Assembly: GCA_021432655.1 (NCBI GenBank)
Contig: MU271292.1
Coordinates: forward strand, 1-64,000
DNA length: 64,000 bases
Source: Atractiella rhizophila
Taxonomy: Eukaryota
Direction of reading: 5' to 3'
Position 1 is the first letter of the stretch, and every line of letters begins with the position of its first letter. Below the pieces are notes generated by a model. It made no database searches, was not told the origin of the DNA, and was given only the letters and a program-made list of their open reading frames with translations. The translations under genes and the position numbers were made by a program. Positions 1 through 31,059 of the stretch are shown here, piece by piece.

Positions 1-95
1 CCCTAACCCTAACCCTAACCCTAACCCTAACCCTAACCCTAACCCTAACCCTAACCCTAACCCTAACCCTAACCCTAACCCTAACCCTAACCCTA
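1..95. repeat. Telomere repeat array (CCCTAA)n, left chromosome end
   Basis: 15 perfect CCCTAA units plus CCCTA starting at base 1, then unique sequence. Confidence 0.98.
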
Positions 96-239
96 GTACT
101 GTTAGTAGTCACAAACAAAATGGTTGTATCATTATCAATAGAGTTCAATCACGGTATTTTACTGCCAGCCTATCCCATCCAATTAGTGTATACCACGAGA
201 AGTGATGAAACATACTAGCAACCAAGCTAGCAAGGGCTT

Positions 240-2075
240 TCAACACCACTTCTTCAGGAAAAAAGCGGAGCTCTCCATCAACTTGGATGAAGTATCCATC
301 ATAAGTCCTTTCCTGTAATAAATTGTGTTCCTGTTACGAAGTAGAAACCTAGAACTTACTACATAAGTCCAGCTCTGTTCACCAATGCCGAAATCAAATC
401 TCGATTTTGATACCAAGCACCTTAGCTGCGCACCAAGCCGTTGTTCCTCTTCAGTCCATTGTGCATAAAAGAGTTGCAAGGTTATTTTGGAGTCTTGGCG
501 TTCAAGGAAACCACGACAGAAATCGAAGCATTCTCCGCAATTGAAGATGCAAAAATACAATCCAAGTATACACAGTTGCTCAGCACTCTGAAGCTGTGAG
601 AAGAAATCATTGGGCAAGACATTGCTATTTTCGTGTCCCCCATCGATTTCCAGTCGGCCAAGAATGTGACAGTTCATTAGGTTCAATGGCTCGCAGAAAA
701 TAACTTTTTCAATATCAAATTTTGAGTAGGCTGGATATCTTATGTCTAGGACTGTGAGAGCTTGTCGCTGATGCGCTAAGAACGGTGCGATTGCTGTAAG
801 CGGCAGTAACTGCACAAAGTGTGCTGTCTGAACTCCAAATTTGATGAGTGAATCCATGAACCACCCACTTCCACATTCAACGTAAAGTTCCTTCAGGTTC
901 ATTGGTGTGAGGTCGTGCTTGGCCGCGATCTCTGAATGAGGAAGAAGTGTGTGCAACAGCATCAATTTGACTGAGACCAGACTTGAGCGCGATTGGCAGC
1001 TCAGCAAAAACTTGAGAACCACGAACTCATCCCAACCCTGTAGTTCCAACTGCTTGATGGTCTTGAGATGAACGAACTCTATAAGCATCCAACGTTCTTC
1101 CTCAACCATCGGATACACTAGAGATAAAAGGGACACAGTCTGATAAGTTTTGAGTGCTGAAACCAACGTATGGAAGGCAACGGCATCCATGTCACGATGA
1201 CGATATTGGAACGCGGACCAACGTCTTTGAAAAACGGGGCACTGCTTCAAATAGTTGAGTTTTTCGTGAGCCGCAGGCGGTTCAGGTGACAATGCCTTCA
1301 GCAGTCGTCGCCAGTCCCTGCAAACTGAACCGTACTTTTGAAACTGTGATCGCCAGTAATCCCAACTTGAATTGCTGGAGTCGGGCTCAAGGAGATTCCA
1401 AAAAATGAGGTCCATCAGCTCTTCCGGCAAAACGAGGATTGATGAAGTTGTCGAAAATGGAGGAGAGTCTTGATCGACTGAGGGAGGTTGTCTACCGCTC
1501 GAAGTGTTCCAGTAGTGGCTTAGGAAATGGGAGGGGGAGGGAGTCACAGGATATTGAGCATGTCCGTCAAGTCTGTGTTCCAACTGAAGGACTACAGATG
1601 AATCGTAATCTATAGCTGGATCAGGTCCAGGGAGATTTATTGGATCGTCAAAGATGTTTTCTGCGTGCGCGAAAGATGGCGCTGTTTGCGTGCGCCTTTG
1701 CGGCGGGTCGTCTTGTGTGACCAATGCACGGTAGTTGGGTACGGAATCAAACGGATCAAATGAAGGAGGTCTGTGATCGTCGGATAGCGGAGGGTCCACA
1801 ATCACGGAATCTGCCGCAAACGGGACTGATGTCGAAACTTCGGATGTGTTGGTGGGAGTTTGAATGCTGGTTGAGTGCGAAATGAAGTTTTGCTGGCGAT
1901 CGTCCTTAAACAAGGCTGTGGCTCTCGAATCTGGTTCCTGAACGTCTGCGCATGGGATTGATGGTTGCTGCTCACTCGCTTCCTGCGAAAAGATGCCAGA
2001 CCAAAGCCCAAAGCTTATGTTAGATGCGATGAAAAGAAGAAAGAGAGACATCATGCCCCCATTGCACAATCCCAC
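240..2075 (-). CDS. F-box protein with LRR-like C-terminal region (last, large exon; true start probably upstream)
   Basis: F-box-like ILVLPEELMDLIFWNLL...SVCRDWRRLL; C-terminal LEIDGGHENSN motif shared with the ORF at 14657-16120; a CTAAC branch site and CAG acceptor near 1983 suggest the first ~31 ORF codons are intronic. Confidence 0.7.
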   Translation of the reverse strand: MGLCNGGMMSLFLLFIASNISFGLWSGIFSQEASEQQPSIPCADVQEPDSRATALFKDDRQQNFISHSTSIQTPTNTSEVSTSVPFAADSVIVDPPLSDDHRPPSFDPFDSVPNYRALVTQDDPPQRRTQTAPSFAHAENIFDDPINLPGPDPAIDYDSSVVLQLEHRLDGHAQYPVTPSPSHFLSHYWNTSSGRQPPSVDQDSPPFSTTSSILVLPEELMDLIFWNLLEPDSSNSSWDYWRSQFQKYGSVCRDWRRLLKALSPEPPAAHEKLNYLKQCPVFQRRWSAFQYRHRDMDAVAFHTLVSALKTYQTVSLLSLVYPMVEEERWMLIEFVHLKTIKQLELQGWDEFVVLKFLLSCQSRSSLVSVKLMLLHTLLPHSEIAAKHDLTPMNLKELYVECGSGWFMDSLIKFGVQTAHFVQLLPLTAIAPFLAHQRQALTVLDIRYPAYSKFDIEKVIFCEPLNLMNCHILGRLEIDGGHENSNVLPNDFFSQLQSAEQLCILGLYFCIFNCGECFDFCRGFLERQDSKITLQLFYAQWTEEEQRLGAQLRCLVSKSRFDFGIGEQSWTYVVSSRFLLRNRNTIYYRKGLMMDTSSKLMESSAFFLKKWC

Positions 2076-2233
2076 AACAAATCATGTGCCATTTTGATGG
2101 ACTCCGCTTGATGTCTGCAAATCGGCGCTGGAGAAGAAATACCTGATGAGATCAGTGTAGTTTCAGATAATACTGCTGCCCTGGTTCGGTGTGGTCGTTG
2201 TCCGGACATTGGATATCAAGTGGCCGACAAACG

Positions 2234-2479
2234 AGCAGACCCGTCGCCCCAGGGGTCGGCGATGTCGGCGTTAAAAACTGCTCCAAAACTGGTGGACCAG
2301 TTTTGTGTGCAAATCCTCGCCTTTTTGAGCTGGCGGCCTCCGGCAGCTTTCGCAAAACCCTCGGGGCGACCAGTTTGCCACGCCAGGTCCAAATGGTTTG
2401 CCTTTCGGTTTTGGGCAATTTCGCGCCCAACACTTGTCGACCAGTTTTAACTCCGACGGGCTGGGGCGACGTGTCTGCT
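2234..2479. mobile_element. MITE-like element with terminal inverted repeats
   Basis: AGCAGACCCGTCGCCCCAG (2234) and CTGGGGCGACGTGTCTGCT (2461-2479) are 18/19 inverted repeats with further imperfect inner pairing; no clear TSD. Confidence 0.45.
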
Positions 2480-3533
2480 ACTCTCGCTCTCAGCCAGTAA
2501 TGAAAGAGTCGAGTTGATGCTCCTCTCCAACCGCGAGCGTGAGGAACTCATGATGCAAGCAGGGTTACGCGCAGCCCCACACCACCTCAAAGAAATCCCT
2601 CAAAGTTCTCCCAAGCGAATCAAAATCTTCATTCACATCAGACCTGCCATCTGCTTCCTGGCGTAAGCCAGTCCTCATATGAGCCTGTGTCCAGAGCGTC
2701 ATCCTCGTGACCTGCATTTAGCCAACTTGAACACTCCGATTAACAATCAATTTATTCTGCTCATTTTCGCTGACACGAACCGGCAGAGTGACTTTGACGT
2801 TTTTACATCCGATTTTCATCTATTTTGACGGATTTTGGCCGCACTCCATCCAATCATTCGACTTCTTGCATCTTTTCAGGACCCGCTAGACGCTTTCACT
2901 TCCTCCCGTGGTTCCTTTGTATCAGTGTTCAGTCAACTCCACAACAATGTTACTCATCTTGGCATAGGTGTTGGCGTGCCTACAGACCCACGTAGATCCA
3001 TGCGCGAATTTCGCCTCAGGCTTTTCCCCTTGTCGGTGTGACGAGTCGAAATTGGCAGCAGACTGTACCTAGAGGAGCACGCTTAGGATGGAACAACACG
3101 GGCCGCGCTCGCAAGTCGTGCTTCCTTCCGAAATCTTCCTCGCTCCAATTTCTGCCCTGCCCCTTCCAAGTTCAGGCCTCCGCCCTGCCTGACGCGGTGA
3201 AACCACCTTTGTGCTGTCGTTGCCGGCTTTTTTTGCTCACTCTTCGACGAATACGGCAGTCTGTTAATTAGTTTCGATTGAATTTGAACTGGACTGACTT
3301 GGATGGAGGTCATGGAAGCCATGGAAAGGTCAGTTTGTGACCTTGTCATGACACACGGTTCATAAATACTGCCTCTCTTCAACCCTTCCATCCATGGTCC
3401 ATCTTCGCTCTTGCTAGTTTCTCTGCTTCCTAATAAACAGCTCGAGGTCTTTATTACCCACTTCAGCTCACAGAGCACATCCTCTTTCCACACTTTTCCA
3501 ACCTTATTATCAAAGACAATTTCGATAGCAACA

Positions 3534-5604
3534 ATGTCAGATCCTGAAAGGGAATCACCTGTGGACGAGAAGAACACTGAGATTGAGAACGCGAAACACA
3601 CTCAGGGTCCCTCGGAAGTAGAGAAGGAGACTATTGAGGACGAGAAGAAACCTGCAGAAGAGAAGAAGCGGAGGTTCGACGTGAGTTTCCACTCAACACG
3701 TCCCTTCCACCTTCTTTTGGCGGAGTTAAAATTCATGATTTTTCCATTGCGAACAGAAAACGTTTGAGAGTAAAGAAAAAGGTCCCAAGCACACACTTAT
3801 CGATATATCGCGGATCGAGCCGAAGGCTGAGGACTTGTACGATAAGGAAAAGGTTGATTTGGAGCAGGTGGGGATGGATGACGTGTGGCAGTTGCTCCAG
3901 TGAGACCCTCCAGTGAGTTTCCGTTCATCATTCTTTCGCAAGAAATGGGAATGGGAGAGTTATTTTTGGTCTCGGTCATTGTTGGTCAATGTGGTCATGA
4001 TGATTTTCCTTTTTGTGTTTAGATGCGACGAGAAGGGATTGACGAACGAGGAGGTCAAACCTGAGGTCAAAACGTCGAACCGAAATCTTCGGACCAAACG
4101 AGCTGGAGTCGAAGGAACAGAACGCTTTCCTCCAATTCCTTTCATTCATGAGGAACCCTCTCTCCTGGGTCATGGACGGAGCCACTTTAGTCGCCATCGC
4201 TCTCTCGAACGGCGGAGGTAGCGCTCCGGATTGGCAAGACTTCGTCGGAATTGTCCTTCTCCTTTTCGTTAACTCAACCATCGGTTTCTACGAAGAACGC
4301 TCCGCCGGGAGCGCTGTCAAAGCTCTCATGGAATCTTTGGCTCCTAAGGCGAAGGCGAAGAGGAACGGCGAGTGGAACGAAATCGAGGCTTCTGAGCTTG
4401 TACCTGGAGACGTTGTTTCCTTCAGAAGCGGTGACATTGTCCCCGCTGACTGCCGTCTGTACGATGCCATCGAGGTGTCTTGCGACCAAGCTGCTTTGAC
4501 CGGTGAATCTCTTCCTTCCAACAAGGTCGTCGGAGACCAGTGTTTCTCCGGATCCGTCTGCAAGTCTGGAGAGGCTGAGGGTGTCGTCATCTCGACCTGT
4601 GCCAACACTTTCTTTGTTAGTCTTTCCTTGCTCACTTTACTCATTTACTGAGTTATCCTGTAATGAATAGGGAAAGGCAGCCACTCTTGTCGGAGCCGAT
4701 GATACCACAGGGCATCTTCAGAAGATTCTTGGTCAAATTGGATCTTTCTGCTTGGTTTCGATTGAATTTTCGTCATCGCCGAAATTTTCGTGCTTTACGC
4801 TGGTTTCCGGTTAGTAGTCTGATCCCCCAATCGTGAATAGTTTCTAAGATGTTGTGCAGCTACTCTTACCGCCGTGGTCTCAACAACATTCTCGTCCTCT
4901 TGATCGGTGGTATTCCCATCGCCATGCCCACTGTCTTGTCTGTCACGCTCGCCGTCGGAGCTCAGCAGCTCGCGAAGTACAAGGCGATTGTAACCCGTAT
5001 CACTGCTATTGAGGAGTTGGCTGGTGTCACCATCCTTTCTGGTACGCTCACCACCAACAAACTGACCGTCGATCGTTCGACCATCAAGCCCTACAACGGT
5101 CATAGTGCGGACGAGGTCATTCTCTACGCAGCTTACGCTTCGCGAACTGAGAACCAAGATGCCATCGATATGTCGACCATTAGCGCATTGGGTGAAAACG
5201 GAACCGCCAAGGGTCGTGAAGGTATCACTCTTCTCGACTTCAAGCCCTTCAACCCTGTTGACAAGCGAACGGAAATCGCCTACATGATTAACGAGTCCGG
5301 AAAGGTGATGAGAGCCACGAAAGGAATGACCGGAAAGATTATCGAACTTTGCACTAGGAACAAGACGGAGGATGTCGAGAACCAACTCGAGGAAGACGTC
5401 GAGGAATTAGCTCGCCGTGGTCTTCGTGCTCTCGCTGTCGCCATTGAGGAAGTCACCTCTGAAGATAAGGATGGAGAAGGAGACGGATTGGAGCTCATCG
5501 GTCTACTCTCCATCTTTGTCCTCCTCGTCAAGATACCAAGCAAACCATCGATGGAGGCTCTTGTCGGAGTCAAGGTCAAGATGGTTACCGGTGATCAGCT
5601 CGAG
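3534..5604 (+). pseudogene. PMA1: Truncated, frameshifted plasma-membrane H+-ATPase (P3A ATPase) copy
   Basis: [45 protein letters not shown] and KMVTGDQL are present; the phosphorylation motif reads ILSGTLT (DKT missing, ~5040); frameshifts near 4060, 4765 and 5520; homology stops abruptly after TGDQL. Confidence 0.9.
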
Positions 5605-6103
5605 GCCTATTCGTTGTGGGGGTAATCTGTGGTCCGCCACCGATGAAAAGATATTCGCCTAGATCAATACAATCGTCGACAGTTAGACAAAACCTTCGTA
5701 TCAGTTTTCGTCGTTACCTCGAGCCTGTCAGCTAACTTCCTATAGCTTAGTTCGTACCCTTTGATGTACGTTGGCTGCAGCGACACAGGACCGGACATGT
5801 CGACTGAGCAAAAGGTGGGTATCACTGTAACTGGTACGGACTCTTTAGACTTACCAGTCTGTAATCGGATTGACGATCAGGTAAGGTAATGGCGTTGGCG
5901 GTTTCTTTCGCAAGGTTTTCGCGAGGGTTACATGCTCCGCCATTCCAGGGCTGAACGCTTTCATGTTGTCCGCCGAGATACACACCATGACAACCTTTGA
6001 AAACAAATGGATTAGTGCTGGCTGCTTCTAATGAGTAATGAGGGATTGGATTGCAAAGAGAAAAAATCGTAAATATAAACAGAAAGGGTTCACAACCGCT
6101 AAA

Positions 6104-7764
6104 TCAGTCCCTTACACCACGCTCACGTCGGATACAATCCAACATATCGTGATCGGCAAGGATCAGTTCACCATCTACCGCATCGTCGGGTCGCCACAAC
6201 TCCGGACCTTTATTCACGTTTATTGGATATCGCACTTCCCCAATCTTCCCTGCCCAGTCGAAGTCCACTAGCATAACTTGCTTTTCGTCCCGTGACACCA
6301 GGATGTTCGTCTCCGAACATCGCCGTGAACGTAACTTCGCTGGTGCAGTTCGCCTAACCTCCTTTCAATCGTATCAAGCAGCGTGGACGCGGGCGTCGTC
6401 AGCATGGTAAGCCCAATGTATTCCTTCTCCGACAACCAATCCATCACTACCATCTTCCAGCCACCAGGGAGCTCTTCAAAACCTCGAAGCTTTGGCGCAA
6501 ATCCTAGGGAAGCGCATATCAAATGGGCCTCTTTCGAATACTGGCGAGCAAACTTGACACAAAGTTCCGACCGTTCTGATTGGTTGCAGAGGAAGACTAG
6601 CTTTTGATCGTGGGGCTGGGATATGTAATCGAAATTTAAGGGATCACCTCCTTCGAGAGGAGTGAACGTTGTTCGATATGGATACAGTTGGGGTTGGCGT
6701 GCTGTCAAATGCGTTGTGTCGGTTTCGACGTCTCGATAGTATTGGTCCAGGAGGTTTACCGTCTTTCTGAATGCCGCAAGATGGCGAGCCACCGTCCTCC
6801 GTGCATTCGTGTCCGTAGGGTGGTGATGCAGTGGGAGAGCAAAGGATAACGTCTGGATGACAGGGCGCAAATTCCACACTGCACCAGCAAACGAGATATA
6901 AGGCCCTATTGTGATTGGCTGAATTGATCAATTTCTACTAGGACGAACCAATGCAACTGACCGAATAGAAGGATAAACATACAGGGCAACGACGAGTGTT
7001 GCAGTCTAACTGCGTGATCTCTGGTCGACTCGAAGTAGTCTAAAATCCCCTGAGCGTACGGCTCGGCACCAGTTTTTCCGATTTCGTTCTTGAACTCTGC
7101 AATAGCGTAGCGCAAGCCTGCCCCAGATATATCGCCATCCGTCCTGTACCTATTGATATCGCTCGGGACGAGATGAATACCGTGAGTTCTGAAAACGCGA
7201 CGAATTGCATGTGCACGTCTATCTTCGTTCGGATAGAGGTCTGACATGACGGAGCAGAGCTCTATAGTGAGGTCGCTGTCTTCTTTGGTCACTTCGTGAT
7301 TCTCGCAATCGTCGAGAAATGTCCCGAAAACAGCGTGTAAGAGTGTGGGAGGAATCGTTGCAGTGACGATATCAGAGCGGTAGCAATAGATCATCGTTTC
7401 GGGAGACATCTGGCGAATCATGAACTCTTCCAACCTCGAGGCTGCAGATGGGTTTTCGCTCATATTTGCCCTAATAAAGGCGGATCTCCGTGCTCCGACA
7501 TTATGTTGCTCAAGGGAACGGCCAGGGGATCCACACGTAATCGTACGAAATAATAAATTAGGAGCGAAGGTTCAGTCATCCATCGGAAGAACAGGTTGAT
7601 AACGATGGCTCACTAGAGGGAGGGGCATCGGCCACGATGTGAACATGGTCGAAAACTGGTAAGTTGTCGAAGAAGAGACTAGACAGCAGGTCGGTGACAA
7701 GCAAAGGCCCATTTTCCTCAAACTTTAGCTTCTTCACATCTTCTTCAAAGTCTTCGTGGTCAGA
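6104..7764 (-). pseudogene. Crinkler-like N-terminal fragment + PD-(D/E)xK-like domain + fungal protein kinase, disrupted
   Basis: Kinase motifs CVKFARQYS, GFAPKL, YVHGDVR and LVDFDWAG with a frameshift at ~6310; TDG...IAEFKNEIG nuclease-like motif in 6906-7463; upstream exon reads LLSSLFFDNLPVFDHVHIVADAP (CRN HVLV-like) and is cut off by the repeat array. Confidence 0.65.
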
Positions 7765-8063
7765 CTTGCTTCGGCGAAGCCAGTTCGCTTCAACGAAGTG
7801 CAGTTCGCTCTAGCGAAGCCAGACTTGCTGGGAAGGTGAGTTTGCTCCTGCGAAGCCTGGCTCGCTCCGGCGAAGTGCAGTTCGCTCCTGCGAAGCCCAG
7901 TTCGCTTCAATGAAGTGCAGTTCGCTCGGTGCAGTTCGCTCCTGTGAAGCCCAGCTTGCTCGGGCGAAGTGCAGTTCGCTCTAGCGAAGGCAGGCTCACT
8001 AGGACGAAGTCAATATGCTCCTGCGAAGCCTGGCTCGCTCCAGCGAAGTGCAGTTCCCTCTAG

Positions 8064-8109
<46 letters not shown>

Positions 8110-8325
8110 GCAGTTTGCTCCTGCGAAGCCTGGCTCGCTCCAGCGAAGTGCAGTTCCCTCTAGTGAAATCAGTTCGCTCCTGCAAAGCCCAGCTCGCTCG
8201 GGCGAAGCCAGTTCGCTTCAGTGAAGTCTGGCTCGCTCCGGCGAAGTGCAGTTCGCTCTAGCGAAGCCAGGCTCGCTGGGCCGAAATCACTTCGCTCCTG
8301 CAAAGCCTGGCTCGCTCTGGTAACC
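7762..8325. repeat. GC-rich minisatellite (GCGAAGTGCAGTTCGCTC / GCGAAGCCTGGCTCGCTC units) containing an A44 run
   Basis: About 20-bp degenerate units repeated in tandem; A-run at 8064-8107. Confidence 0.9.
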
Positions 8326-8474
8326 TCCTGTTCACTGCAGCAAAACTGGAGTGCAGATGCAAAGCCAGTCTCACTCTCACAACCTCGTGCTTACTTCAGC
8401 TAAACCAGGAGTGCTGAAGCGAAGACGGTCTCGCTCCACCAAAGTCCTGTTGGCATTTGTGAAACCAGGACTGC

Positions 8475-8775
8475 TGCAAACTCGCATTTGGATTCACGTC
8501 ACAAGTTTGCTCTCTCACGAGTTTGCAGTCTTACAAGTTTGCTCTCTTGCGTTTGCATTCCCGCTCATTTGCTGTCTCATGGGTGTGCTCTCTCACGTTT
8601 GCAGTCTCGCGAGCTTGCTATTTCGCGAGTTTGTTGCAGTCTTGCGAGTTTGTCACAGTCTTGTGAGTTTGCATTCTCGCTAGTTTGCTCTCTTGTGTTT
8701 GCTGTCTCGCTAGTTTGCTGTCTCGCGAGTTTGTTGCTGTCTCGCGAGTTTGTGGCTGTCTCGCGAGTTTGCAAC
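8475..8775. repeat. Second degenerate minisatellite (TCTCGCGAGTTTG-type units)
   Basis: Repeated GTCTCGCGAGTTTG/TCTCGCTAGTTTG variants. Confidence 0.8.
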
Positions 8776-8849
8776 CTAGTGTTTGGGTTCACCTTGGTAG
8801 TTTGCTGCCTCCCGAGTTGGCCGTCTCGCTGGGTAGATAACAAGTGAAG

Positions 8850-11800
8850 TCAGAAGGCAAAAGAAGGAAGTGGCCCTGCATGGGGCCGGCGACGTAGAGG
8901 AGAAAAACGGTGGGAGAGGCTGATAGGGAAGGGTTGGTTTGTTGGCTCGAGGAAGGGGCTGAGGCAATAGAAGAACCACCTAATAGCTGGGAGCAGCATG
9001 TGAACGATTTGCCGACGAATAAGCAAGAGGAGTTGACGGTCCAAGCGAAGCTGCCAGATAAAAACAACAAACTAGCAGTGTCAAAGAAGCACCAGCGAGA
9101 GAAGATGTTGGGCTGCCAGCTATCTCCCCAGTAGCCGATCTTCTGCTTTCCACCACCTTACCCACCTCTCCCCTTTCCAGCCAACCGCGACAACAATTCT
9201 ACCCATTCTCCGATCCTACTTCGTAGCTTCCAGCTCGGCAACCCGATGCCCTATCTGGTCAACAACAGGCGACATTGCAAGGCTCGACCTTCCTCTCCTC
9301 TGTCCCCGAACCCGATTTAGACCTTTCAAAAATGCCCTCGTAGCTGATGTCCGAAATTTGTCGCTGAATGAAGCGGATGAGGAGTCAGAGATGGATTGAC
9401 TCCTGGGGCACAATCAGGTTCGAGAGAAACCGGTCACGAGCAATAGCAGGGGATCCAGCGATCTGCTTGGTCCTTCCTATTCTCAACCAAAGCTCTACCC
9501 GGCTGTCAACATGCTCACCGTCCTCCGAGAGCCCCATTCCCAGAATCCTATGAATGTGAAATGGCAGTATCGCGATCCCAAGGGCCAAGTGTAAGGACCA
9601 TTCAGTACAACGCAGATGTAGGATTGGTATTGGTGCTCCTATTTTCCGGAGGGTGAGCGAGTGGGAGAAGGTTCTGTGCGACTTGTGGACTTTATTACGA
9701 GGGTGGGAAACAACGAAGAACCGTTTTTCAAGCTGGTCCCGCCGATTCAGATCGGGTCGTCAGATGAGGACTTCTGGGCTGGGCGAGAAATGATGCTGAT
9801 GCACAATGCTCCGATTGAGGATGCGCGCGCAGTTTGAGAGGGGAGAGACGAGGCAGCGATCTGTTGCTCGAAGAAGGAGTTTCGATAGCTAGAAGAGAAG
9901 GAGTGCGAGTCGCAGAGAGGTTTATGAGATGGAAGGACGAGAAGGATCGGAGTTGGATTAGCAGACAAATCTTTGTTAGAGCAGTTCCGGCAACAACAAT
10001 CTGCCTCTATCTTTGCCGGTTACGACACGTTTGGAATACCAGCAAATGCAGCAGCAACAGCAAAAGGAGATCCAAGCTCTATTGCAACATAAGACCTCTC
10101 CCCCGTAGTATGTCTATCCGCCATGCCCGGCAGGGAACCATTCTCTCCTGAGCTTCAGCAAGGAGAACCATGGAGGAGAGCTGGAGGATTAGAGCCGATG
10201 AGGAGGGGCAGTGTAGGCCTGTCAAATGGACGGCGGGATGTTCAGGACCTGGAGATGTCGCTTTTTGGCGGCACAAGCGCAACAACGGTTAAACGGAGCG
10301 GGAGTATATGGGACCCAGCAGCAATCTCTCGCTTCGAGTCAGCAGGCCGATCTCCTCGCTGCCCTTGGCGTCGCGTCAGTTCAACAGGAGCGCGAGCGAG
10401 AACGCCAGAATCTTCTTCGCGAATATGCTCAGCAACATCACCAATTGCGCCTTCCCTTGAACGACTCTCTCGCTTCTACATCCCCTTCAACCCCATGTTT
10501 CTCATCCCACACACTCGCAAGGTGTGACGGGTCCCACGTCGCCAGGGTTATTTGATCGATTCCCTCAACACTCTCCCTGCTGCCCTTTCCCCCGAATGGG
10601 CTTTAACGGCTCAAAAACAGTCCACACCTATGACGAGCCCAAGTGGACCCTGGTCCCAGGTGCTTCCTGCTCACAGGTTTCGATCCTTTGCGAACCCTGC
10701 CTAGCTTGCTGTGGAATCAAAAGAGAGGGGAATGAGGGCTTTGCAGCTCTTGCTGGCACCAGTGCAGATGTAATTCACGAGCCCCCATTCCCTGGTTTAC
10801 GTGAGCTTAACTCTTCCCCTGCCGAATTTGAACAGCCACTCCAACCTCAGCGCCACCAGTTCGCCCAGGAAGACGAGTCCATCATACCGTCTTAGATACA
10901 CCACAGCAAGCAGACGTCACCGTTGCACAACCCTCGCTGGCCAGACTAAGAGATTCGGCAAATATCCACAGCTCCGATGCGCCCCCTTGAAGCAGAAGAG
11001 GATCAGGATCGTGGCAATCTGTGGCCGTGAGGACACACCCAAAGCTCGTTGTCCACCACCATCATACCCAATTCCTGAGCTTGTACCGCCACAATTTACG
11101 CCTGGAAAGGCATCCATCCTCACTCCGGCACAATTCGAAGCCGTCAAATCTTCCAGCATCGCCCAGCCTTCAAGCACTACCTTCTTCCACGAACAACGTT
11201 GAACCGCACTAGCCGCATCTATTCCTAAGCCTGCGCCGTGGGTAAAGGAGGAAGACTGAACCGCTCCTTCGCTAAAACAAATTCAGGAGGCTGAAACGAA
11301 GGTAGCCAAAGCGCGCAAAGAGCGGAGAGGCAGGCTCAGATGTTACAGTATCAACCGCACGCGCTCGTGGAGCCGTTGGCTGTTGAGCATGCTGCATTGG
11401 CAAAGGAAGCGGAGTCCTTACCCTTATCAAGCACTTGGGGGTCAGATGGTGATGCAAAAGGAGGTGTGGGCTGGGCTAAGTCGACAGGTTCTGGACCACA
11501 GCGGACGAAGAGTCTAATGGAAATCCAGCAGGAAGAAGAAATGAAGAAAAGAGGATAGCTGCTCAACAGGCTCAGGCTTCGGCAACCGCAAATCAACTTA
11601 GTCCACCTCAGCGTGCTTATGCTTCCAGTGCAGCCAAGGCTGCCCAAAAGGCTAGCCAATTCTCCTCATTTGCGTATGATTTTGCTCATGTCGAGTGCAA
11701 TGCTCGTCACCCGCCAAACGAACTGGTACAGTTCCAAGATCCCTTGTATTGGTCCGAAACTTTCAACAAAGGCGCCTCCCAAGCCAACTACCCCGTCCTC

Positions 11801-12311
11801 TACCCTACCTCTAGTTCGCCTTCAGTGACCAAGAAAGCCACACCAGTTTCCACCCCAGCTTTGAGTGGGAGCAAACGCCATCGCCTTCTCCCGAATTTCT
11901 AACATGGTGCAGAGAAGCATTGAGAAGCTTGACTGTCAATGGTTTGTACTCCCCTCCACCGCAGCGGCTGTTGATTTGATTCTCCAGTGGACGGCTTCAT
12001 TTCAAATGCTGCTCGATTTCCCTCTAGACCCTGCATCTTACCACTTGGAACTTATTTTCGGACAGTGTCTACGAGAACCCAACGTCATTAGAGGGAGGGT
12101 GTTTGCCAGTGATTTCGTTACCAAAAGGAAAGCTGACGCACGCGCGAGGATCCCGAAAGGTAGTTCTATTGCTGGTAACACCAACAATGGGAAGACAACG
12201 GGGACAATCGCTGGCGCTCTGAAGGGCGTGCCGAGAAAGAGCAGTCAGGAGTGGAACGTCAACGCCAAGTTCAAAGTCGTGACACCAAAGCAAAAGAAGG
12301 GGAAGCGATGA
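8850..12311 (+). pseudogene. Degenerate GYF-domain protein (Smy2/GIGYF-like)
   Basis: 9562-9650 translates as WQYRDPKGQV*GPFSTTQM*DWYWCSYFP (GYF domain with two in-frame stops); later segments KSLMEIQQEEE, PSPEFLTWC and QMLLDFPLDP...FASDFVTKRKAD lie in shifting frames. Confidence 0.8.
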
Positions 12312-13329
12312 AACGGGGAGAAGCAGGAGAGATCATCCACATCGCTGTGGAGTTCTGAAATGGATAATGTTGTCGTTCTACATGATATTTGTCGATTTAA
12401 GTGGGAAGGAAGGATCATAGTGCAACAAATTCCTACTCTCATCGTAATTCTCAATGACTCAGGAGTCAACGGTCGTCTCGGAATCGAAAATGGAGGCTAT
12501 TAAGTCTATCAGAGGACCTGTTCCCACTCCCGCAGCTTCATCCGTTTCCCTGGAGCCTTACTGAGAGCGAGCGTCATGCTGCTCCCCCCCCCAAGACCCT
12601 CGTTTGGTGTTGGAGTTTGCTCCATGTGATCCCCTCAGCCTTTACTGGACAACTTAACAGGATGTGTCTCACCTGCACATTATTACAGAAATTCTGCCGC
12701 GTCCCCTCCGATTGTGCGTCAGTCTCACCTGCAGAGCTTTCCTTTTCTTGACTAAATTGTCAGCATCAGCATGGCAGGTCAAATTCTCAAACCTCACAAC
12801 CTCACGGAAATACAAACGTCTGCGGCGTTTCCAAGTTGAAAAGCAGCGATCGTTTTCTCCATCCCTGATTTCGATGAATAAGAAATAAGATTCACGACGT
12901 TACTCTTGCTTGTCCATCCGTGCTTACCCACGCAAAGGACAAACTAGAGAAATTTTTCATCTTGCCCCGTGGAAAGAGGAGCAACCTTGGCGCATAGTTC
13001 GGTGGCAAACGCTTTTGTGTCCTGGTGAAGCTACTTCAGACCGGCTGGTGACAAGGATAGAGCTTACCCACTATTCGACGGCCGTAGAATATTTGACATT
13101 CGCTATCGTGAGGCTACGCAGTAATATTTTATTTCAACTTTCAACATGATTCATGGATCCCGTTGCGATCAAGCTAAGTTCCCGATTAGGTATCCCCTTG
13201 AGGTCGAATTTGTACCGTAAGCTCGCCTTGCGACACCTGGTATCCGGTCTGATCCCAATCGTTAGACCCTACTTGTAGAGGTGCGTACTTGCTAGCCGAG
13301 AACTTTCAGCACTGATGACAACATCCGGG

Positions 13330-13800
13330 CCGTCATCAATTTCTTCCCCGTCAGTGCAATCGTTCGCCGACGAGACGAAGGAGCACAACATTTCATCGTC
13401 AAGGTAGTTGAAGAACCCGATTATGAAGCAAGGGAGATCCACTGTTTCTTGCATCCATTGCAGACCCGAAAAGTCATACCATCAAGATCATGGAACTTTT
13501 GGAAAGTGGAGGCTATCAAATCCTTGTTCTTCCACTCGGCACTCCTCTTCGCGCTCTCGAAAGTCAACTTGATGCTGCCCTCGCGATCTCCCTATGCGAG
13601 CAACTCCTTGAAGGGGTTTGTGCACTTGGATTTGAAACCCGCAAGTCTCGTTGTCACGTGTGATACTCTCCAAATCACTGACTTTGAATTTACTTTGTCC
13701 CAGTTGGCTCCGATACAATATTGACAGGTTTCAGAGGGACAACAACGTGGGTTACCCCCGAAGTTGGGAAACTAACCATCCCTGTCGATCTTTGGGCAAC
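13330..13800 (+). pseudogene. Protein kinase-like fragment
   Basis: GFVHLDLKPASLVV...LQITDFE catalytic-loop and DFG-like motifs within broken frames. Confidence 0.5.
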
Positions 13801-14209
13801 TGGAAGCATTATGTTTTGTTTCTTTGGTGCATCCCTCCCAGCTGGCCACTAACTTTTGGAGCTTGGAACTTGCAGGGAAATTGACCTCCCCTGATCCGAT
13901 AACGCGACCACGCCGTCGAGTTCGGGCTACATTGTTCGCTTCTTGTTGATCACATCTCTTTTTGGTTCTCTGTTCTGCACAGATCGATCCCTTAATGGAT
14001 TACCTCTTGTCCGTTTTTTTTCTGTACGACAGTCATGTATTGGAAGTAGCTTGAGCCAAAATAAAATCAAACACAGTCGGGCCATGAAGTTCGAAGTTGG
14101 GTTGCACCTAAGTGCTAACCATCCGCTGCTCACTCGCCCCTCCGGGCCGCTGACTGAGAAAGTCATATTACAGATGAAATCCCCACAAAACCCATCTTCC
14201 CTCCGCATC

Positions 14210-16120
14210 ATGACCTTGCAACCTACGTGGTATGGCCACATATTTGACCTCGACGACGTGCAGAAGGTCGTACATGCTTGCGTCCAAGGGTTGCTCGTTG
14301 ATATCCCTAGAAGATTGGACGAGCGGGAGATGGAAGAGATAATCCAGCACGGCAGCGTTTTCGTTTTTGAGGAAGGCAAGAGCGGGATGACACAGTGGAC
14401 CGATCATTCAAAAGTGAGAAAGTTACTAACCCAAAGAAACTAACTCGCACTGATTCATCCATATCGACAGTATGAACAGCCAAGAAGGGCAGGCATTTTC
14501 CTCACTTGCACCGAACGCGATTCTCCAACCGGCTCTTTTCCTCTCACCAAAGCCTACATCTGCATTCAACCAGCCACTTCTCCAGCCGAGCGGTGGCACC
14601 TCGTCGCGTACTACAACTGGCATTATAACAATCTTCCGCAAGTCCGTCGCGATCCTTTGTTTCATAGAGTCATTGTGACGGAGGAGATGTACTTCGTGGA
14701 CTGGTCGCGGACCCTTTACGGGATAGGCATTACACCAAGACCTCTGATTATCTGGATGCCAAACGAACTACTGTTCCAGATCCTTAACCTTCTCCTACCT
14801 CAAGTCACTCATGTGGAGGATCTCAATCAAGAGTTTATCACACAATTTTCCATCTTTCGGCAGGTTTGCTCTGGATTTAGCAAACTCGCGCTCCGAGTCC
14901 TAGCAAGTTACAGTGATCAATTTGAAGAATCGTTCTCCTCCCATGCTCTTAACATTAGATACCTCAGGAACATGGCGATGGAATATGGGTTTATGAAATG
15001 GAAGAAAGGCCAGATATTTAATTTAGGTCTTCCTCTTCAACCCTCTCGCAGGTCTTATCCTGAATTGCTGCAGGCTGTTCGGTCATATTCAGGCAGGTCA
15101 AATGTGCAGATCCACAATCTTCCATGGACATGTGTTAATCTAGAGGGCATATTGGAAACAATTTCTTCGTACCAACCAGCATCTTTGAAGCTTTTTTTCA
15201 CGAAACAACATGTAGAATTATCTCTGCAGGAAATACTTGCTCTGCTCTCAGGCAAGGTCAGTAATGTCACCCTATCTGGGCTAATTCCGTCGCCCGCCCA
15301 GTGCCTTGCAAGTGAAGGAATATTTCTTCCCCATGAAAGCCTTGCTTTGCTTCAGTGTAACCTTTGTGATGAAGACCTCTATGACATCCAAGGCAAACAA
15401 AACATGCGAACACTCATATTCAGCTCATTTCATCCGTTACTTACCACAAATGGCCTTTGTCATCTCTTGAGGATTATGAACCCAAGTCACCTTTGCTGTG
15501 CTGTTCAGCAGCCTTCACATTGTGATGCCAGTCACCCACTCTCCCCCATAGAAAGATATCTTCACTATGACCTCCTTCGTGTACCGTCTGAGCATCAGTC
15601 CTCCAAGCTCAAAACACTTTACCTCGATGGAGGAACTGAGCATTCGAATATTACATCAGATAGATTTCTGACGGTTGACTTTGATTGGTATCACCTGTCA
15701 GAGCTTGTTTTACTTTACTGCCACTTTCCGGCCAGCACACTATTCGACTTCCTGCACATTGTCACTCGAACCCACCGCAGATGGCGCATCAAACCTTTTG
15801 TTATGCAGTTAAAGCCATTCTTCGGAGACTCTGATTTTTCTGCCTTTTGGTTCTCCGAGGTGCTTGGTACATTCCAGACCTCCGTGGCAGTGATAGCATC
15901 TTCTGCAGACTCATTCAACGAAAGGTACAGGAACAACTCCAGATATCCGCTTCAGTATGATCCCTCAATATCGGGATCAGAATTTAGCGTGCTGGGCATT
16001 CAAGACTTTTCTGTCTGGAACGGTTTCCCAGTCGATCTTTGGATTATTGATCAAGATGACGCACCGGGCAATGAGGGATCCCTCCTTTTTTGGGAGAATT
16101 TCAACGCCAACAAGCAATAA
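14210..16120 (+). CDS. Gti1/Pac2 (WOPR) domain fused to F-box and LRR-like region; 2 exons (14210-14413, 14471-16120), ~617 aa
   Basis: Exon 1: PTWYGHI...IPRRLDERE..IIQHGSVFVFEEGKSGMTQWTD. A 57-bp phase-0 GT-AG intron follows. Exon 2 is open through LTKAYICI...WHLVAYY...DPLF into the F-box WMPNELLFQIL...FRQVCSGF. Confidence 0.75.
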
Positions 16121-16274
16121 CAAGTTGTTGAGGTTGTCTGAGTCTACATCTGTTAGAACATCTTGCAGTAACAGGATTAAGAATGGATTGTAGCTTGTAG
16201 GGAAGATTCATTGTGGATACTTCTGCCCAACATTTTAGATGAACCAGGCAATATGATGAATCTTATTATTTATG

Positions 16275-18253
16275 CTACTAACAGTACTCTGGCTACATCC
16301 TTGCCTCCTGGCTGCCCAGGGTACAACCCTGCCTGTGTCAGGAAGACACCTGGCTGAATCTTTACCTTCCGGCTCAAAACCTCCCCAGTCGATAGGTTAT
16401 CAACACAGGAGCGGAGGGGTCACTGCAGGGCAATTTTGTTGAAAACGTCCCCAGTCGATAGGTGTTAGGGCTGACACTATGTGCGGTCGCCGATAGGCGA
16501 TGCGTCTGTAGTGGAGATAAACCTAAGTGCATGATATGACATGAAGACTAACCTGTAGTGGAGATAAACCTAAGAGAATACTCTAAGGTCACCTCCACTA
16601 CTCTCTGATCTATATATACAAGTGGAATAACACTGCCACAGAGCGTAGAGGAGAGCAGATGAAACATGTAAGAGAACTAAAAGGGGAAGTGACAGTGGGA
16701 TTACACGGGGTTAATAAGAGGAGGATAGGCACAACTGGGCTAAGTGGTGATGTAGGTGCAAATGGGCGACCGGAGACGCAGTGGCGAACGGGCGCCGATT
16801 CGCAGGGAATGCAAATGGGCGATAGGAGACACAATCCGGCGAACGGGCGCCGATTTGCATAAGATGCAAACCTGACAATAGGTTATCAACACAGGTGTAG
16901 AGGGGGTGTGGAAAGTGCAATTTCGCTCCAAACGTCCTAATCTTTAGCTTATCACTAAAGGTAGCTAGTGAGGACGTGGAGACAAAGTTCAGATATACTT
17001 GCAATTTCCGTACGAATGATATATCCCTCCCACAGAGATGCTGCAGCTCCATATGCTTGACATGATAAAATGTTCCCACAACCACCCTCATGAATGCAAG
17101 TTTTACATTCTCGCTCTTACTCATGTTACATTTACTAGTAGATGTGAAAATAACAAAGGGTTCAGAATAGCATAACATGCGCTTATCTTTATGTGAAATC
17201 TTTCAGCCATGATCTTATTTATGGGCACTAACATCATTATTAACCATCTGTTTATCGTCATCTTGACCGTAATGATTGAAAACAAGCTCTTTAATTGGTC
17301 ACATTGTTAATCATTCTTAACACGTTTTTATTTTAATTGTAGTACTATTTTCAAGGGCTCCATTATCTTGATCATTGGTTATACATTCAAGTTTGTGTAT
17401 ACACCAAATTGGTTCTACACAATGCGGCCCCTCGATTGCTCACAGCTACATCCAATGCCTGCACTACCTTCAGCATGGTATCAATCTGTCCATGCTCATA
17501 ATCACTCTTAAGCGGCTGCCTGGCTGAGTTTCATGAAATATTGGTTCTCAGTCCCATCTTCACCTCCATACATGGTATCGATAACCTATCGACATGGGAC
17601 ACTTTCAACAAAATTGCACTCCTCAGACCCCTCTATACCTGGTGTCGATAATCTATCGATCTGGCGCAGTTTCGCCAAAATTGCATTTATCGTTAATAAT
17701 GTATACAGAATACATATCTAAACCGTTATAAATTAATTTTGCAACTTTGAATGTACTTTGTTCAATAGGAGATGTATGCTAAATATGAACCAGAGCTGTC
17801 GAATGAAGCAACATTTCAATGGATAAGTGATTTAAGATGTGTCTTAAGGAGGACATTGCCTGTGCCTATGAGTGTTTATGTGTACATGACATTTTGACTG
17901 GATTGTTATTCCTATATATGGCAGGGTTCTACCCTGGTTGACTAAGAGCCAACAATTTCATGATGATGCTGTTTTATTGGAGGCAGGGTCATACCCTGGA
18001 TGCCTAGGAGGCAAGGATATAGCCAGGATCCTGTTCATGACAGAGGCAGGGTTGTACCCTAGGCAGCGAGGAGGCAAGGATGTAGCAGGATCCTGTTCCC
18101 GACAGCATCAGGGTCGTACCCTAGGCAAGGATGTAGCCAGGATCTTGGTCATGACAGAGGCAGGGTTGTACCCTGGGCAGCCAGGAGGCTGGGATTCAGC
18201 CAGGATCTCGTTCCTGACAGAGGCAGGGTTAAACCCTAAAGTACTGTTAGTAG
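16275..18253. mobile_element. Non-autonomous element with 14-bp terminal inverted repeats and mirrored subterminal repeat arrays
   Basis: CTACTAACAGTACT at 16275-16288 and AGTACTGTTAGTAG at 18240-18253; ~62-bp repeat at 16289-16350 (minus) and ~6 copies at 17920-18237 (plus); a second ~65-bp repeat at 16383-16940 is mirrored at 17575-17685; AT-rich non-coding core; no TSD seen. Confidence 0.75.
16463..16877 (-). mobile_element. Solo LTR (415 bp) nested in the TIR element
   Basis: TG...CA termini; 5-bp TSD ATAGG (16458-16462, 16878-16882); near-identical reverse complement of 20552-20966. Confidence 0.93.
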
Positions 18254-18874
18254 CGTTTCCACCATCTCATATTCGCTGGGGATCAGCTCACACAGAGTAC
18301 ACTGATGTGCCTGACAGCTCTCTCATCCCCCCTCAACAAGGGGACTGGTATACCCCAGAAGAGTTGAAGGAGGTGGGGGGACAACGGAAGGCTTCGAAAA
18401 AGGCAGCGCTTAAGAAGAGGTTGAATATGATGGATGAGAGAAATGCTTTTGTTCAGAAGAACGACAAGGTGGTCTTAGTGTCGTTTTGGAGCTCTGATAG
18501 ATATTGATTGCTGATGTTGGTGTCAAGTTGATTACAACACCATGCTTTCCTCAATGTCTTGGGGCGAAATTGCAATGCCATTTCTGTCAGTCTCTCTTCT
18601 TCTGGGCAAGACAAATGCATGAATAGTTCACAACCTTATCGATGCCTCTTTGCTTTCGCTTTGATTTGATGAAGAGAGAATCAGTCGAAAGGCTTGACTC
18701 ACAACTCCATGCGACAGCATTTGTGTAATACCGTTGAGGATGAAGAATGCAGAAATGGGCACAGGATCCCACGGCGCAAGCATTGACACAAGAGGAAGAT
18801 TGGTGGGAGGCGCAATGTCCTTGGGGGTGAAGATGCAGAGAAGTTCGTGATCTCGGTTGGGGACCACGCAATAC

Positions 18875-19364
18875 TGTCAGGCTTGCCCCTACGCATTACC
18901 GAAATGTACCATTCGGAGTCACGTGACCTACTTCAGTACATCGTAGGATCAAGTGCCTACACGTCGCCACTTTGCGCACGTTCGCGCTGACCGCCGCCTT
19001 CTCCCATCTCACTCGAATCGCCGCTCAGCAAACCTTATACATTTCTCCGGTCTGCACCGTCGCCATTATTGCCTTGTTATCTTTTCTCACTTGTACTGCT
19101 CAGTATATCTTATTTCCGAGTATTCCCTTTATTGCTTTCCTGATCTAGCTATCTTACATGTTTCAAGAAACTTATGTTACAGTTTATGGCAGTGCCTTGG
19201 CATATGTATATATACATTGAGATGTAGTGGTGGTGACCTCAGAGTATTCTCTTAGGTTTACCTCCACTACAGGTTAGTCTTCTCATGCTATACGATTCTC
19301 TTAGGTTTACCTCCACTACAGACGCATCGCCTATCGGCGACCGCACATAGTGTCAGCCCTAACA
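18875..19364 (+). mobile_element. Solo LTR (490 bp), related family
   Basis: TGTCAGG...CCCTAACA termini; 5-bp TSD AATAC on both sides; last ~130 bp shared with the 415-bp LTR. Confidence 0.9.
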
Positions 19365-19639
19365 AATACCTTTCAGATTGCAATTCTAATGATTTACCCT
19401 CACAGTACCAGTAATGTTACCTACCCCAATTGAAACCAAACCTCAGTTTTGCAGCCTGCCGCCTCCACTTCCCTTCATATTATTGATCAACATCTTCAAT
19501 GTTTTTTTCCCCCTCGACGGACTTGTCAACATCAAAGACCACCAATTACAATGACATTTGGCTATGGTATAACATAGCAAGCTTCATGCCTTCCATGGAG
19601 GCGTTCATGTGTACAACCTAAAATAATGCTCTGAGGATT

Positions 19640-20966
19640 TAACCATTCTCTCCGGAATTGGTGAATGGAAGTGAAGAATGGGAAGTGGAAAAAATTGTCG
19701 ATGGAAAATGGTTCGGTACCCAAAATAGAGTTTTCAAATATCGCGTTCGATACAGACGGTATTCACCATCTGAGGACGAGTGGATCAACATCGCAGATCT
19801 AGAAAATTCGCAGGATGCTATAAAAGTCTATCACACTGCACACCCTCTTGCAGTTCGTCCCAATTCCATACCGAACTCCGCAAAAAATCGCCTAAATGCG
19901 CGTTTTCGTAACCTTCGCCTAAATGCGCGTTTTCGTAACCTTTGACGAAAACGCGCTGAAGGGTCTTCCTCACTTTAAGAGGTCCAACACCCCTATATGC
20001 CTTGCCGGATGAAATCCTAGTCTTTGATACTTAGGTCAAGGCAAGGCGCCGACCTGCTCCTCAACGGACAAGTCGGCGACTTGGTCATTGGTGAGTCCAT
20101 TCGTTGCCCGTCAAAGACGAATGCTCATAGTGTTCTCGCACCATCACCAATGTCGCATTTACGAAAATTGCCCTCAATCGCAAGGTCCCCTCCCCCTCAC
20201 TTTAAGAGGTCCTACTCCTCTACACGCCTCACTGGGTGAATCCCTAGTCACATTGTTGAACATAGGTCTAGGCGAGGCGTCGGTCAGTTCCTCAACGGAG
20301 AGATCGGAAACCGGTTTGTTGGTGAGTTGTCCAGCCCGTTTTCGCAGAATGGACACTTATTACACCAAAACAACACCTGGTCAACTTTGAAAAAATTCCT
20401 CAAATTGTGAGGTACACAGTGTCTCTTTGCTCCAACAATTTCATCTCTGTCCAAGCAGCAGCTGGTACTTCAGGCACTTTTCGCAAAATTGGCAAACCTG
20501 ACGAAGCAGAAGTTTCTGCTTACTGCAAGCACCACAGAAACTGGGGGGTGTTGTCAGGTTTGCATCTTATGCAAATTGGCGCCCGTTCGCCGGATTGTGT
20601 CTCCTATCGCCCATTTGCATTCCCTGCGAATCGGCGCCCGTTCGCCACTGTGTCTCCCGACGCCCATTTGCACCTACATCACCACTTAGCCCAGTTATGC
20701 CTATCCTCCTCTTATTAACCCCGTGTAATCCCACTGTCACTTCCCCTTTTAGTTCTCTTACATGTTTCATCTGCTCTCCTCTACGCTCTGTGGCAGTGTT
20801 ATTCCACTTGTATATATAGATCAGAGAGTAGTGGAGGTGACCTTAGAGTATTCTCTTAGGTTTATCTCCACTACAGGTTAGTCTTCATGTCATATCATGC
20901 ACTTAGGTTTATCTCCACTACAGACGCATCACCCATTGGCGACCGCACATAGTGTCAGCCCTAACA
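19640..20966 (+). mobile_element. 3' remnant of a Ty3/Gypsy chromovirus: integrase chromodomain, 3' UTR, G-rich PPT-like tract and 3' LTR (20552-20966)
   Basis: EEWEVEKIVD...YRVRYRRYSPSEDEWINIADLENSQDAIKVY chromodomain at 19658-19945; GGGGGG just before the LTR; the LTR has no TSD, as expected for a 3' LTR. Confidence 0.85.
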
Positions 20967-28930: not shown

Positions 28931-29271
28931 GTAATGGATACCGTCTCTCAAAGATCCCTGTATCACTTCGACGCTAATGGATGTCTCGCTTTGGGATGTT
29001 GGCTTGAACACGATCGTGTTAACAATGTATGGGAAAAATACTGAAATATTAGATACGTGTTGACATACTTCACTACTTGTCAAAAGTCACTTTCGCTTGC
29101 TCGTGAAAGTAGTTCAGCGCGGCAGCTCCAAATTCCGTCACGCACTGTTTCATCATTCATCAGTATTGAATGCGATACGACGTGTGCTTCATTAAAAGTA
29201 CAAATGATGGTCACTAAAAGGCTATCACAAAACCCGAACTATCGTATGCACAGCAGATATCCAAAGATTCC

Positions 29272-30230: not shown

Positions 30231-31059
30231 GACGATGCCAGACAATATCCATAATCATTCCTGTTGCACAGATACTCGTCTGGGACGGATCTGGAGTTTC
30301 GATCAGCAGGCTAATGCAGGTGAATGACTAGATTTTCGACGTGATGATTCTCACGTAACGCAGGTGCATTAGACCTCCTTCAAAATGGAAAACAAGAACG
30401 AAGGGGCATGCTGCAACGTCGTTAGAGAACAGTGACTCGCATTTCTTGCTGTAGGAAAGACGGATGACTGAAAGGAGCCTTGCAGCGATGGATAAATCAC
30501 GCAAAACAAATAGGGTGCTTAACTCGAAACTGTGAGGAATAAAGCACACACCGACGATACCCAAAGGGACCTCTGCCAAAGTCCACCGGCTGCTCAAGGG
30601 ATGCGAAGAGTGTGTAGAGATGTCGGAGAGTGGGGACAGGGAGCATTGCCTGCATCTTTCGTCGAATCGCTCCTCTTGAGTAAGGTAAACCTCGTGCAAG
30701 CCTTCGTTGAAACTGATGTGGGAGGAATGGGGGTCTATTGATGTGGTGTTGTTATATCGGAAGGAAGGAATGGCGTCGTATCCTTGTCGGGAGTTGCAGC
30801 ACCGCCAGCTTGGGGCTGAGCCAGCTGATACTTTGTTGGTGGGAGACAGGGACAACTGGGCAGCAAAATGAGAGGGCAGGGGAACCGATCAGACGACTTG
30901 GCCAGTTCCTGAAGCGGTCCTGCTGCGGATGGAAGTTGAGCAGATTAGGGTTGCGGAATCAATTGCGTGTTAGGGTCGTCGCGTCGCCCGCAAAAACAAC
31001 GACCAGTCGACATCTCATCCTCACCACCAGAATTCAGCAGCATCAGCGCAGGATTCATC

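Follow-up and report, generated by a model that had tools for sequence, protein, structure and literature searches.

A putative class II element terminus at a telomere junction of Atractiella rhizophila, and further telomere joins in the same repeat family

The left end of contig MU271292.1 of Atractiella rhizophila raises the question of how a chromosome comes to end where a mobile element ends. The stretch analysed here, called the window, comprises the first 64,000 nt (64 kb) of that contig. It begins with telomere repeats that run straight into a 14-mer, and the same 14-mer is found further inward as both termini of a repeat element. The first-pass annotation, made from the letters alone, had proposed that another copy of that element broke just inside its terminus, that telomerase extended a TTAGGG built into the element, and that the family may be a portable site of breakage and telomere addition. 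The features at the chromosome end are as follows:

1..94, plus strand: telomere array, C-rich strand, (CCCTAA)15 followed by CCCT (letters read directly)
95..108, plus strand: apparent outermost 14 nt of an element copy, a terminal inverted repeat remnant (exact 14-mer and contig match)
240..2081, minus strand: terminal open reading frame of 613 codons, with no Pfam family (reading frame list and Pfam)

The complete CCCTAA units occupy 1-90 and the final CCCT 91-94, in the orientation that is right for a left chromosome end, and telomere 12-mers are confined to 1-96 in the 64-kb window. The 14-mer, AGTACTGTTAGTAG, follows at 95-108, immediately inward of CCCT. There are no telomere repeats between the 14-mer and the single-copy DNA at the start of the window, and the DNA from 109 on has no similarity to any other part of the window. 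The stop codon of the terminal reading frame (240-2081, minus strand) lies 131 nt from the 14-mer. An apparently intact gene is thereby placed almost at the chromosome tip.

Three public runs with cover of the terminal 9 kb were used as contigs, two of them (X1 and X2) from one sample of organism A and the third (X3) from organism B; these contigs, which are not reads, were placed on 85-20000 at 85% likeness. An X1 contig of 1796 nt (record 1, depth 129) matches 85-1868 and an X2 contig of 672 nt (record 9) matches 85-744, both with 0 differences and both reaching 12 nt further outward. Since X1 and X2 are one sample, perhaps the assembly's own source, this match is not independent confirmation of the junction. 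The junction is reproduced in short-read contigs, which means that it is not an artefact of long reads, assembly or polishing. Additionally, the contig that carries 109-1868 has the depth of single-copy sequence (129 in X1), and the label "unique" given to this DNA is correct.

Exact matches to the 14-mer number three in the 64-kb window, at 95-108 (plus strand), 16275-16288 (minus strand) and 18240-18253 (plus strand), where 0.12 would be expected by chance with up to two mismatches allowed; none of 100 shuffles reached three. The two inner matches delimit the following element:

16275..18253, plus strand: full internal copy of the terminal-inverted-repeat (TIR) element, 1979 nt including a nested solo LTR (repeats and 14-mer ends)
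16275..16288, minus strand: left terminal inverted repeat, exact 14-mer (14-mer search)
16289..16367, minus strand: left subterminal arm, one repeat unit, with a palindrome at 16318 (repeat comparison)
16463..16878, plus strand: nested solo LTR between duplicated ATAGG(T) (repeat comparison)
17918..18239, plus strand: right subterminal array, about four to five units of ~63 nt with six AGGGT-N3-ACCCT palindromes (repeats and fold)
18225..18239, plus strand: innermost palindrome variant, AGGGTT-A-AACCCT plus AA, containing AACCCTAA (letters read directly)
18240..18253, plus strand: right terminal inverted repeat, exact 14-mer (14-mer search)

The element termini are an exact inverted repeat (14/14), and the arms inside them are related to each other, with left and right units 80-83% complementary over 55-82 nt. 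The left arm amounts to about one ~63-nt unit. The right arm is a tandem array of 4.3 copies of this unit at 17980-18238, with a further diverged unit from 17918, and as single-stranded DNA it folds better than 100 of 100 shuffles (z = -3.9). The nested solo LTR at 16463-16878 is 98% identical, in inverted orientation, to an LTR at 20551-20966. No second copy of the element is present in the 64-kb window.

The palindrome AGGGT-N3-ACCCT occurs seven times in the window (16318, 17923, 17985, 18048, 18110, 18162 and 18225), always inside the element. Because its half-sites resemble permutations of the telomere repeat, the right arm has a high density of telomere-type hexamers, 28 per kb against about 2 per kb elsewhere in the window (14-fold). 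The innermost of the seven, at 18225, is the hairpin with a telomere repeat and is changed at two or three bases; it yields the telomere-like 8-mer AACCCTAA at 18232-18239, directly beside the right-terminal 14-mer. Telomere-like 8-mers are found at eight other places in the window, which is about the chance frequency, and the left end of the element has none. Outside the element, telomere-like sequence is densest at 30945-30976, where two such 8-mers (30945 and 30969) are spaced by 24 nt, and at 50316-50324, a telomere match of 9 nt.

As a description of the letters, the first-pass annotation was accurate. The order (CCCTAA)15-CCCT-14-mer-unique DNA at the chromosome end was read exactly and is carried without a difference by a contig of single-copy depth, the same 14-mer does form both ends of 16275-18253, and AGGGTT-A-AACCCT-AA does precede the right-hand copy at 18225-18239. 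However, this hairpin is one of seven palindromes, all in the element. The chromosome junction also equals the internal element end minus 2 nt, as had been claimed, with CCCT-A-GTACTG at the telomere and CCCT-AAA-GTACTG in the element, that is, two A fewer at the telomere.

The element family is multi-copy. At least nine distinct X1 contigs lie over position 17763 and eight over 17706, and the summed X1 contig depth across 17349-18676 is ~8000-9000 against ~130 for single-copy DNA, a summed depth that is not to be equated with copy number. Joints between contigs reveal that element copies differ in their interior and in their number of arm units. To the left of the internal copy the DNA is single-copy (X1 record 8, 12862-16325, depth 135), and the right flank is multi-copy, with a summed depth of 18557 at 18271 in at least five X1 contigs. 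Two of the three 14-mers thus adjoin single-copy DNA (109-1868 and 12862-16274), which points to the 14-mer as the boundary of a mobile unit; as the right flank is multi-copy, the unit is bounded with more certainty on the left than on the right. In X3, from the other organism, there is no contig cover of 85-748 and almost none of 15357-18012 (binned mean depth 0.3-1.3); X3 accordingly showed no empty site and no ancestral full copy, and such lack of cover is not evidence of absence.

A search for target-site duplications, with direct repeats of 3-10 nt and offsets of up to 3 nt from the boundaries of 16275-18253, found nothing but a trivial offset TTT. The asymmetry between the flanks and the missing target-site duplication together suggest a rearrangement beside the element. 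It could be argued that the 1979-nt unit continues rightward into a larger repeat, but the data favour the 14-mer as the true terminus, and the right side most likely reflects a deletion beside the element or else a neighbouring repeat related to the LTRs (18254 to about 19364). The stretch 18254-19364 is itself multi-copy in X1 and X2, has loose contig ends at 18933 and 19083, and shows neither a repeat within the window nor a Pfam family. A second partial LTR, 87% similar, lies at 19187-19364. The LTR at 20551-20966 comes after a Chromo-domain fragment at 19643-19945 (Pfam E = 4.8e-08) within an LTR region of 19137-20966, and the contig runs are very rich in this LTR family, whose ends adjoin 16-18 different flanks.

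Judged by its sequence features, the unit at 16275-18253 is classed as a non-autonomous, unclassified class II TIR element, and without a target-site duplication it is unassignable to a superfamily. The scan for Pfam families found no transposase in 102 reading frames of the window (10 + 86 + 6); of the 115 frames that reach 110 aa, it leaves aside 19, which are confined to the first 16 kb. The reading frames of the element itself contain no Pfam family and no reverse transcriptase. Among proteins of 112-359 aa, a reading frame that spans the right arm (17890-18504) had no match but itself, and among those of 30-111 aa it had 0 matches. In the window no match to Rfam, the hammerhead ribozyme included, attained the gathering score, and 16000-19200 gave only four chance-level matches with E of 1.4 or more. 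Metagenome scans gave 0 matches, both with a subterminal 22-mer and with a telomere-like heptamer followed by a 0-2-nt gap and a 13-mer. Neither the 14-mer nor a comparable class II family was found described in the full-text literature, a search that lies outside Repbase-type libraries and supplementary files.

Several known groups were considered for the element and set aside. A Tc1/mariner element with a TA duplication and an 8-bp TIR is contradicted by the telomeric copy, which has the whole 13-14-mer including the would-be flank. CACTA, hAT, PIF and MULE are each not supportable without a target-site duplication. Helitrons have 5'-TC and 3'-CTRR ends, a 3' hairpin and no inverted termini, whereas the ends here are CT... 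and ...GTAG and mutually inverted, and the palindrome 16 nt before the end is the sole Helitron-like feature. Helitrons inserted in telomere repeats are described, in the available text of one report, as capping germline chromosomes of Paramecium (PMC13085455).

The window is not the only place where a telomere meets this family. Among the six loose contig ends listed for X2, telomere repeats stand right before 17831 in one contig, right before 18023 in one contig and right before 18088 in two contigs, the actual join in the last case being near 18076. X1, from the same sample, shows no telomere-repeat loose end on the element among the six listed for it. The three X2 joins lie 165-430 nt from the element terminus and have few nucleotides common to telomere repeat and element: at most three (TAA) at ~17826, one at 18023 and at most one at ~18076. 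The loose parts measure 26-28 nt, as is expected of a k=31 contig that enters a long pure repeat, so these joins look like real telomeres or long interstitial tracts. ACCCTA at 18056 and 18118 and AACCCTAA at 18232 are on the centromere side of the joins at ~17826 and 18023, and the sites at 18118 and 18232 are on the centromere side of the join at ~18076. No telomere-like tract lies on the centromere side of the window's own junction. By estimate rather than by a computed statistic, four junctions in a family that makes up a small fraction of a contig set of ~40-50 Mb would far exceed random placement.

The reading that we regard as probable, with some reserve, is that copies of this family have been truncated repeatedly at chromosome ends and healed by telomerase from a short seed, so that the family is a preferred end-forming site. 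For the window, a non-autonomous class II copy would formerly have stood at 108/109, the terminal gene having its stop codon 131 nt further in. Everything distal to it, together with nearly the whole copy, would have been lost by a break or by terminal erosion. The G-rich strand would then have had an exposed 3' end, ...CAGTACT-3', which telomerase extended into a new telomere. The seed would have been 1 nt, or up to 7 nt if the A run, three long in the internal copy, was a single A in the lost one. Like events would have occurred in at least three other copies, at different positions, and this recurrence is what points to the family as a preferred place for chromosome ends. In the available text of the Magnaporthe study, 19 of 24 de novo telomeres extended seeds of 1-4 nt, and 17 of 23 truncated MoTeRs had seeds of 1-7 nt (PMC7367193). 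The 0-3 nt shared at the three X2 joins matches the short seeds reported there (PMC7367193).

The recurrence could be due to two causes. Copies may simply be close to chromosome ends, as is the intact copy 16 kb from the telomere, or the arms, rich in telomere-like half-sites and palindromes, may favour breakage, recruitment of telomerase or both. Subtelomeric siting and arm composition are both plausible and do not exclude each other. One built-in seed does not account for the recurrence. Relative to the "built-in TTAGGG" of the internal copy, the telomere junction is out of register by 2 nt, and this offset, the left end without the motif and the eight other telomere 8-mers all argue against extension of that TTAGGG. 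The first-pass annotation therefore holds in part: the chromosome does appear to end in a former element copy of which the outer 14 nt are left, but the proposed extension of TTAGGG is not supported by its register. Similarly, the idea of a portable family is borne out in its recurrence, by the three X2 joins, and not in its specific seed mechanism. For the window's own end a built-in seed may nevertheless have served, because a one-A copy would give an in-register extension of 7 nt. If breaks fell purely at random, it would be a coincidence that the cut lies exactly at the inner edge of the TIR, beside the place where the internal copy matches the telomere over 8 nt.

Recurrent truncation and healing has to be weighed against other accounts of the four junctions. 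In one of these TTAGGGTT, read inward from the right terminus, is a functional seed held in a hairpin, copies break inside the terminus and telomerase extends the seed, which would make each copy a portable telomere-addition site. The 8-mer AACCCTAA at 18232-18239 does lie immediately beside the 14-mer, the junction in the window is at exactly that place with an A run of one instead of three, a shorter A run in the lost copy would permit in-register extension over as many as 7 nt, and telomere-element joins are recurrent in the family. We nevertheless hold this account to be unlikely. The junction as sequenced is 2 nt out of register, the left element end lacks the motif, and the other three joins (~17826, 18023 and ~18076) are away from the seed and have 0-3 nt in common with the repeat. 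Furthermore, the 8-mer is a two-to-three-base variant of a palindrome present seven times in the element, the window has eight further telomere 8-mers at about chance level, and by our own reasoning a 6-bp stem with a 1-nt loop is no stable hairpin. A broader form of the idea, which we consider doubtful to a similar degree, is that a DNA-transposon family whose subterminal binding-site palindromes consist of inverted telomere half-repeats (AGGGTT / ACCCT) is a mobile hotspot for new chromosome ends. Breaks would be made by its own transposase, at the inner edge of the 14-bp terminus, or arise at fragile palindromes, the arms would attract telomerase or telomere-binding proteins, and each landing would install a latent neo-telomere site.

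Cleavage by a transposase is another conceivable source of the break. P elements are cut on one strand at the element end and on the other at the inner edge of the TIR, and a staggered cut of this kind would leave the flank with a 14-nt 3' overhang, ...CAGTACT, an end on which telomerase could act at once and that was healed instead of rejoined. The remnant is precisely the 14-bp TIR, the strand polarity fits (the G-rich strand reads flank, 14-mer, telomere), and the missing target-site duplication with a one-sided repeat is the pattern of transposase-mediated adjacent rearrangements; maize Ds is the classical case of transposon breakage followed by healing. However, there is neither a transposase nor a superfamily assignment here, the cleavage chemistry is assumed, the family shows no sign of activity, and the three joins 165-430 nt inside the element cannot arise in this way, so that this account appears improbable. 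Addition of an element to an end, rather than loss from it, is more improbable still. An eroded end would have received the element and been capped later. The join could be made by ligating an excised linear copy to the end, or through RNA, as happens with MoTeR, CNL1 and endonuclease-deficient Penelope-like elements, and the result would be variably "5'-truncated" copies with their other end towards the centromere. The terminal repeats of Penelope-like elements carry a hammerhead ribozyme. The element here has no reverse transcriptase or other reading frame family and no hammerhead or other Rfam family, it has true inverted termini and inverted arms, its telomere-like 8-mer is 14 nt inside the terminus and not at it, and no proximal telomere repeats separate the 14-mer from unique DNA. 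What speaks for addition is that a missing target-site duplication is expected, that all four junctions have the same polarity (telomere, truncated element, right terminus, chromosome), although the arms are inverted repeats and make polarity uninformative for three of the four, and that telomere-localised fungal retroelements similarly have one to three TTAGGG at the end away from the telomere, according to the available text on Zymoseptoria (PMC4522978). A misjoin of a telomere read to a contig that starts in a repeat is the least probable of the explanations. A short telomere tract (94 nt) and a junction at a repeat terminus are what such a misjoin would show, but two short-read contig sets match 85-1868 and 85-744 with 0 differences and extend 12 nt outward, an assembler is not misled by a repeat of 14 nt and the DNA beyond it is single-copy, so an assembly artefact is largely excluded.

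Truncation and healing of a terminal repeat, the preferred reading, has its closest parallel in rDNA and MoTeR truncations of Magnaporthe oryzae. There too, in the available text, a terminal repeat is shortened and a telomere added at an in-frame seed of 1-4 nt (up to 7 nt), and separate copies are truncated at separate positions (PMC7367193). MoTeR differs in being a non-LTR retrotransposon that inserts into telomere repeats (PMC7367193, same text), whereas the element here has inverted termini, no reverse transcriptase and no proximal flanking telomere tract. A second parallel is with the SiRTAs of yeast, telomere-like internal sequences that are preferred in break healing (PMC10055226, as available). 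A comparable feature here is that telomere-type hexamers (18056, 18118 and 18232) lie centromere-side of three of the four junctions. However, SiRTAs are described in that text as fixed and experimentally defined chromosomal sites (PMC10055226), while the candidate hotspot here would be on a mobile, multi-copy element.

Class II elements are known to mark breaks elsewhere. The likeness to maize Ds/Ac and to the P element is that a class II element marks the break and the broken end becomes stable. Ds/Ac breakage with end healing and the terminal deficiencies at P elements of Drosophila are cases in which the action of a transposase is proven. By comparison, the element here has no known transposase or superfamily, and three of its joins are deep inside it.

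In the ciliate systems TBE1/Tec and Cbs and in the elimination system of nematodes, breakage belongs to a developmental programme and each break site has the motif. In TBE elements telomere repeats form the extreme termini at both ends. The element here has a single telomere-like 8-mer, at one end only and 14 nt inside the terminus, which sets it apart from TBE. Compared with Cbs and the elimination motif, four junctions are known here and their positions vary. The likeness to ciliate TBE1/Tec, Tetrahymena Cbs and the nematode elimination motif (PMC13060919, in the text available) is that of a short conserved sequence associated with a break and telomere addition.

Fungal repeats concentrated at chromosome ends are also represented by the Penelope-like Athena/Coprina and Zymoseptoria families (PMC4522978) and by CNL1 of Cryptococcus (PMC12810828). 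As far as the available texts of both reports go, these have telomere units near the centromere-facing end and variable distal truncation, like the family here, but they encode a reverse transcriptase and are without inverted termini (PMC4522978, PMC12810828). The element here has no reverse transcriptase or ribozyme, and a non-autonomous derivative is possible. The polarity of telomeric retroelements fits all four junctions, three of which are uninformative owing to the inverted arms, and the 8-mer is 14 nt from the end. The available text of a telomere-to-telomere paper on Agaricus (PMC7473861) reports class II families and subtelomeric RecQ helicases, with nothing in that text that resembles the element.

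These data strengthen the case for a special relation between this family and chromosome ends. Truncation of a terminal repeat followed by healing through telomerase is known in fungi; what would be new here is its recurrence in a class II family with telomere-like arms. The telomere-associated fungal elements found in the literature, in so far as the available texts describe them, are retroelements (MoTeR, CNL1 and the Penelope-like families), whereas here a class II family with inverted termini is present at four different telomere junctions in one sample. If an excess of such junctions is confirmed genome-wide, the family would stand beside the fixed sites of preferred telomere addition in yeast as their natural counterpart on a mobile element, and would give a handle on the remodelling of fungal karyotypes and subtelomeres. 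If it is not, the locus would be a tidy case of ordinary telomere healing.

The rest of the window contains genes and repeats of other kinds. Pfam places a P-type ATPase at about 4043-5625 and a Gti1/Pac2 domain at 13895-14443, with an inositol polyphosphate kinase and a Dis3-type RNase further inward. The Gti1/Pac2 family is a fungal one, and the gene content gives the window a fungal character. An NLR-like gene at 33002-38175 (minus strand) encodes a long TPR array behind a patatin-like phospholipase domain, an architecture typical of fungal subtelomeric genes for non-self recognition. A minisatellite region at 7780-8770 consists of two arrays. The first, at 7780-8490, is built of units of about 20 nt (AGTTCGCTCC-TGCGAAGCC type) in several registers and includes a run of A26 at about 8062-8089, and the second, at 8519-8767, has units of about 16-20 nt; length variants of the region are found in the contig runs. 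In X3 the summed contig depth reaches 26000-41000 at the P-type ATPase (3405-5396) against tens to hundreds elsewhere, and X3 may be RNA or may hold a highly abundant relative of this gene.
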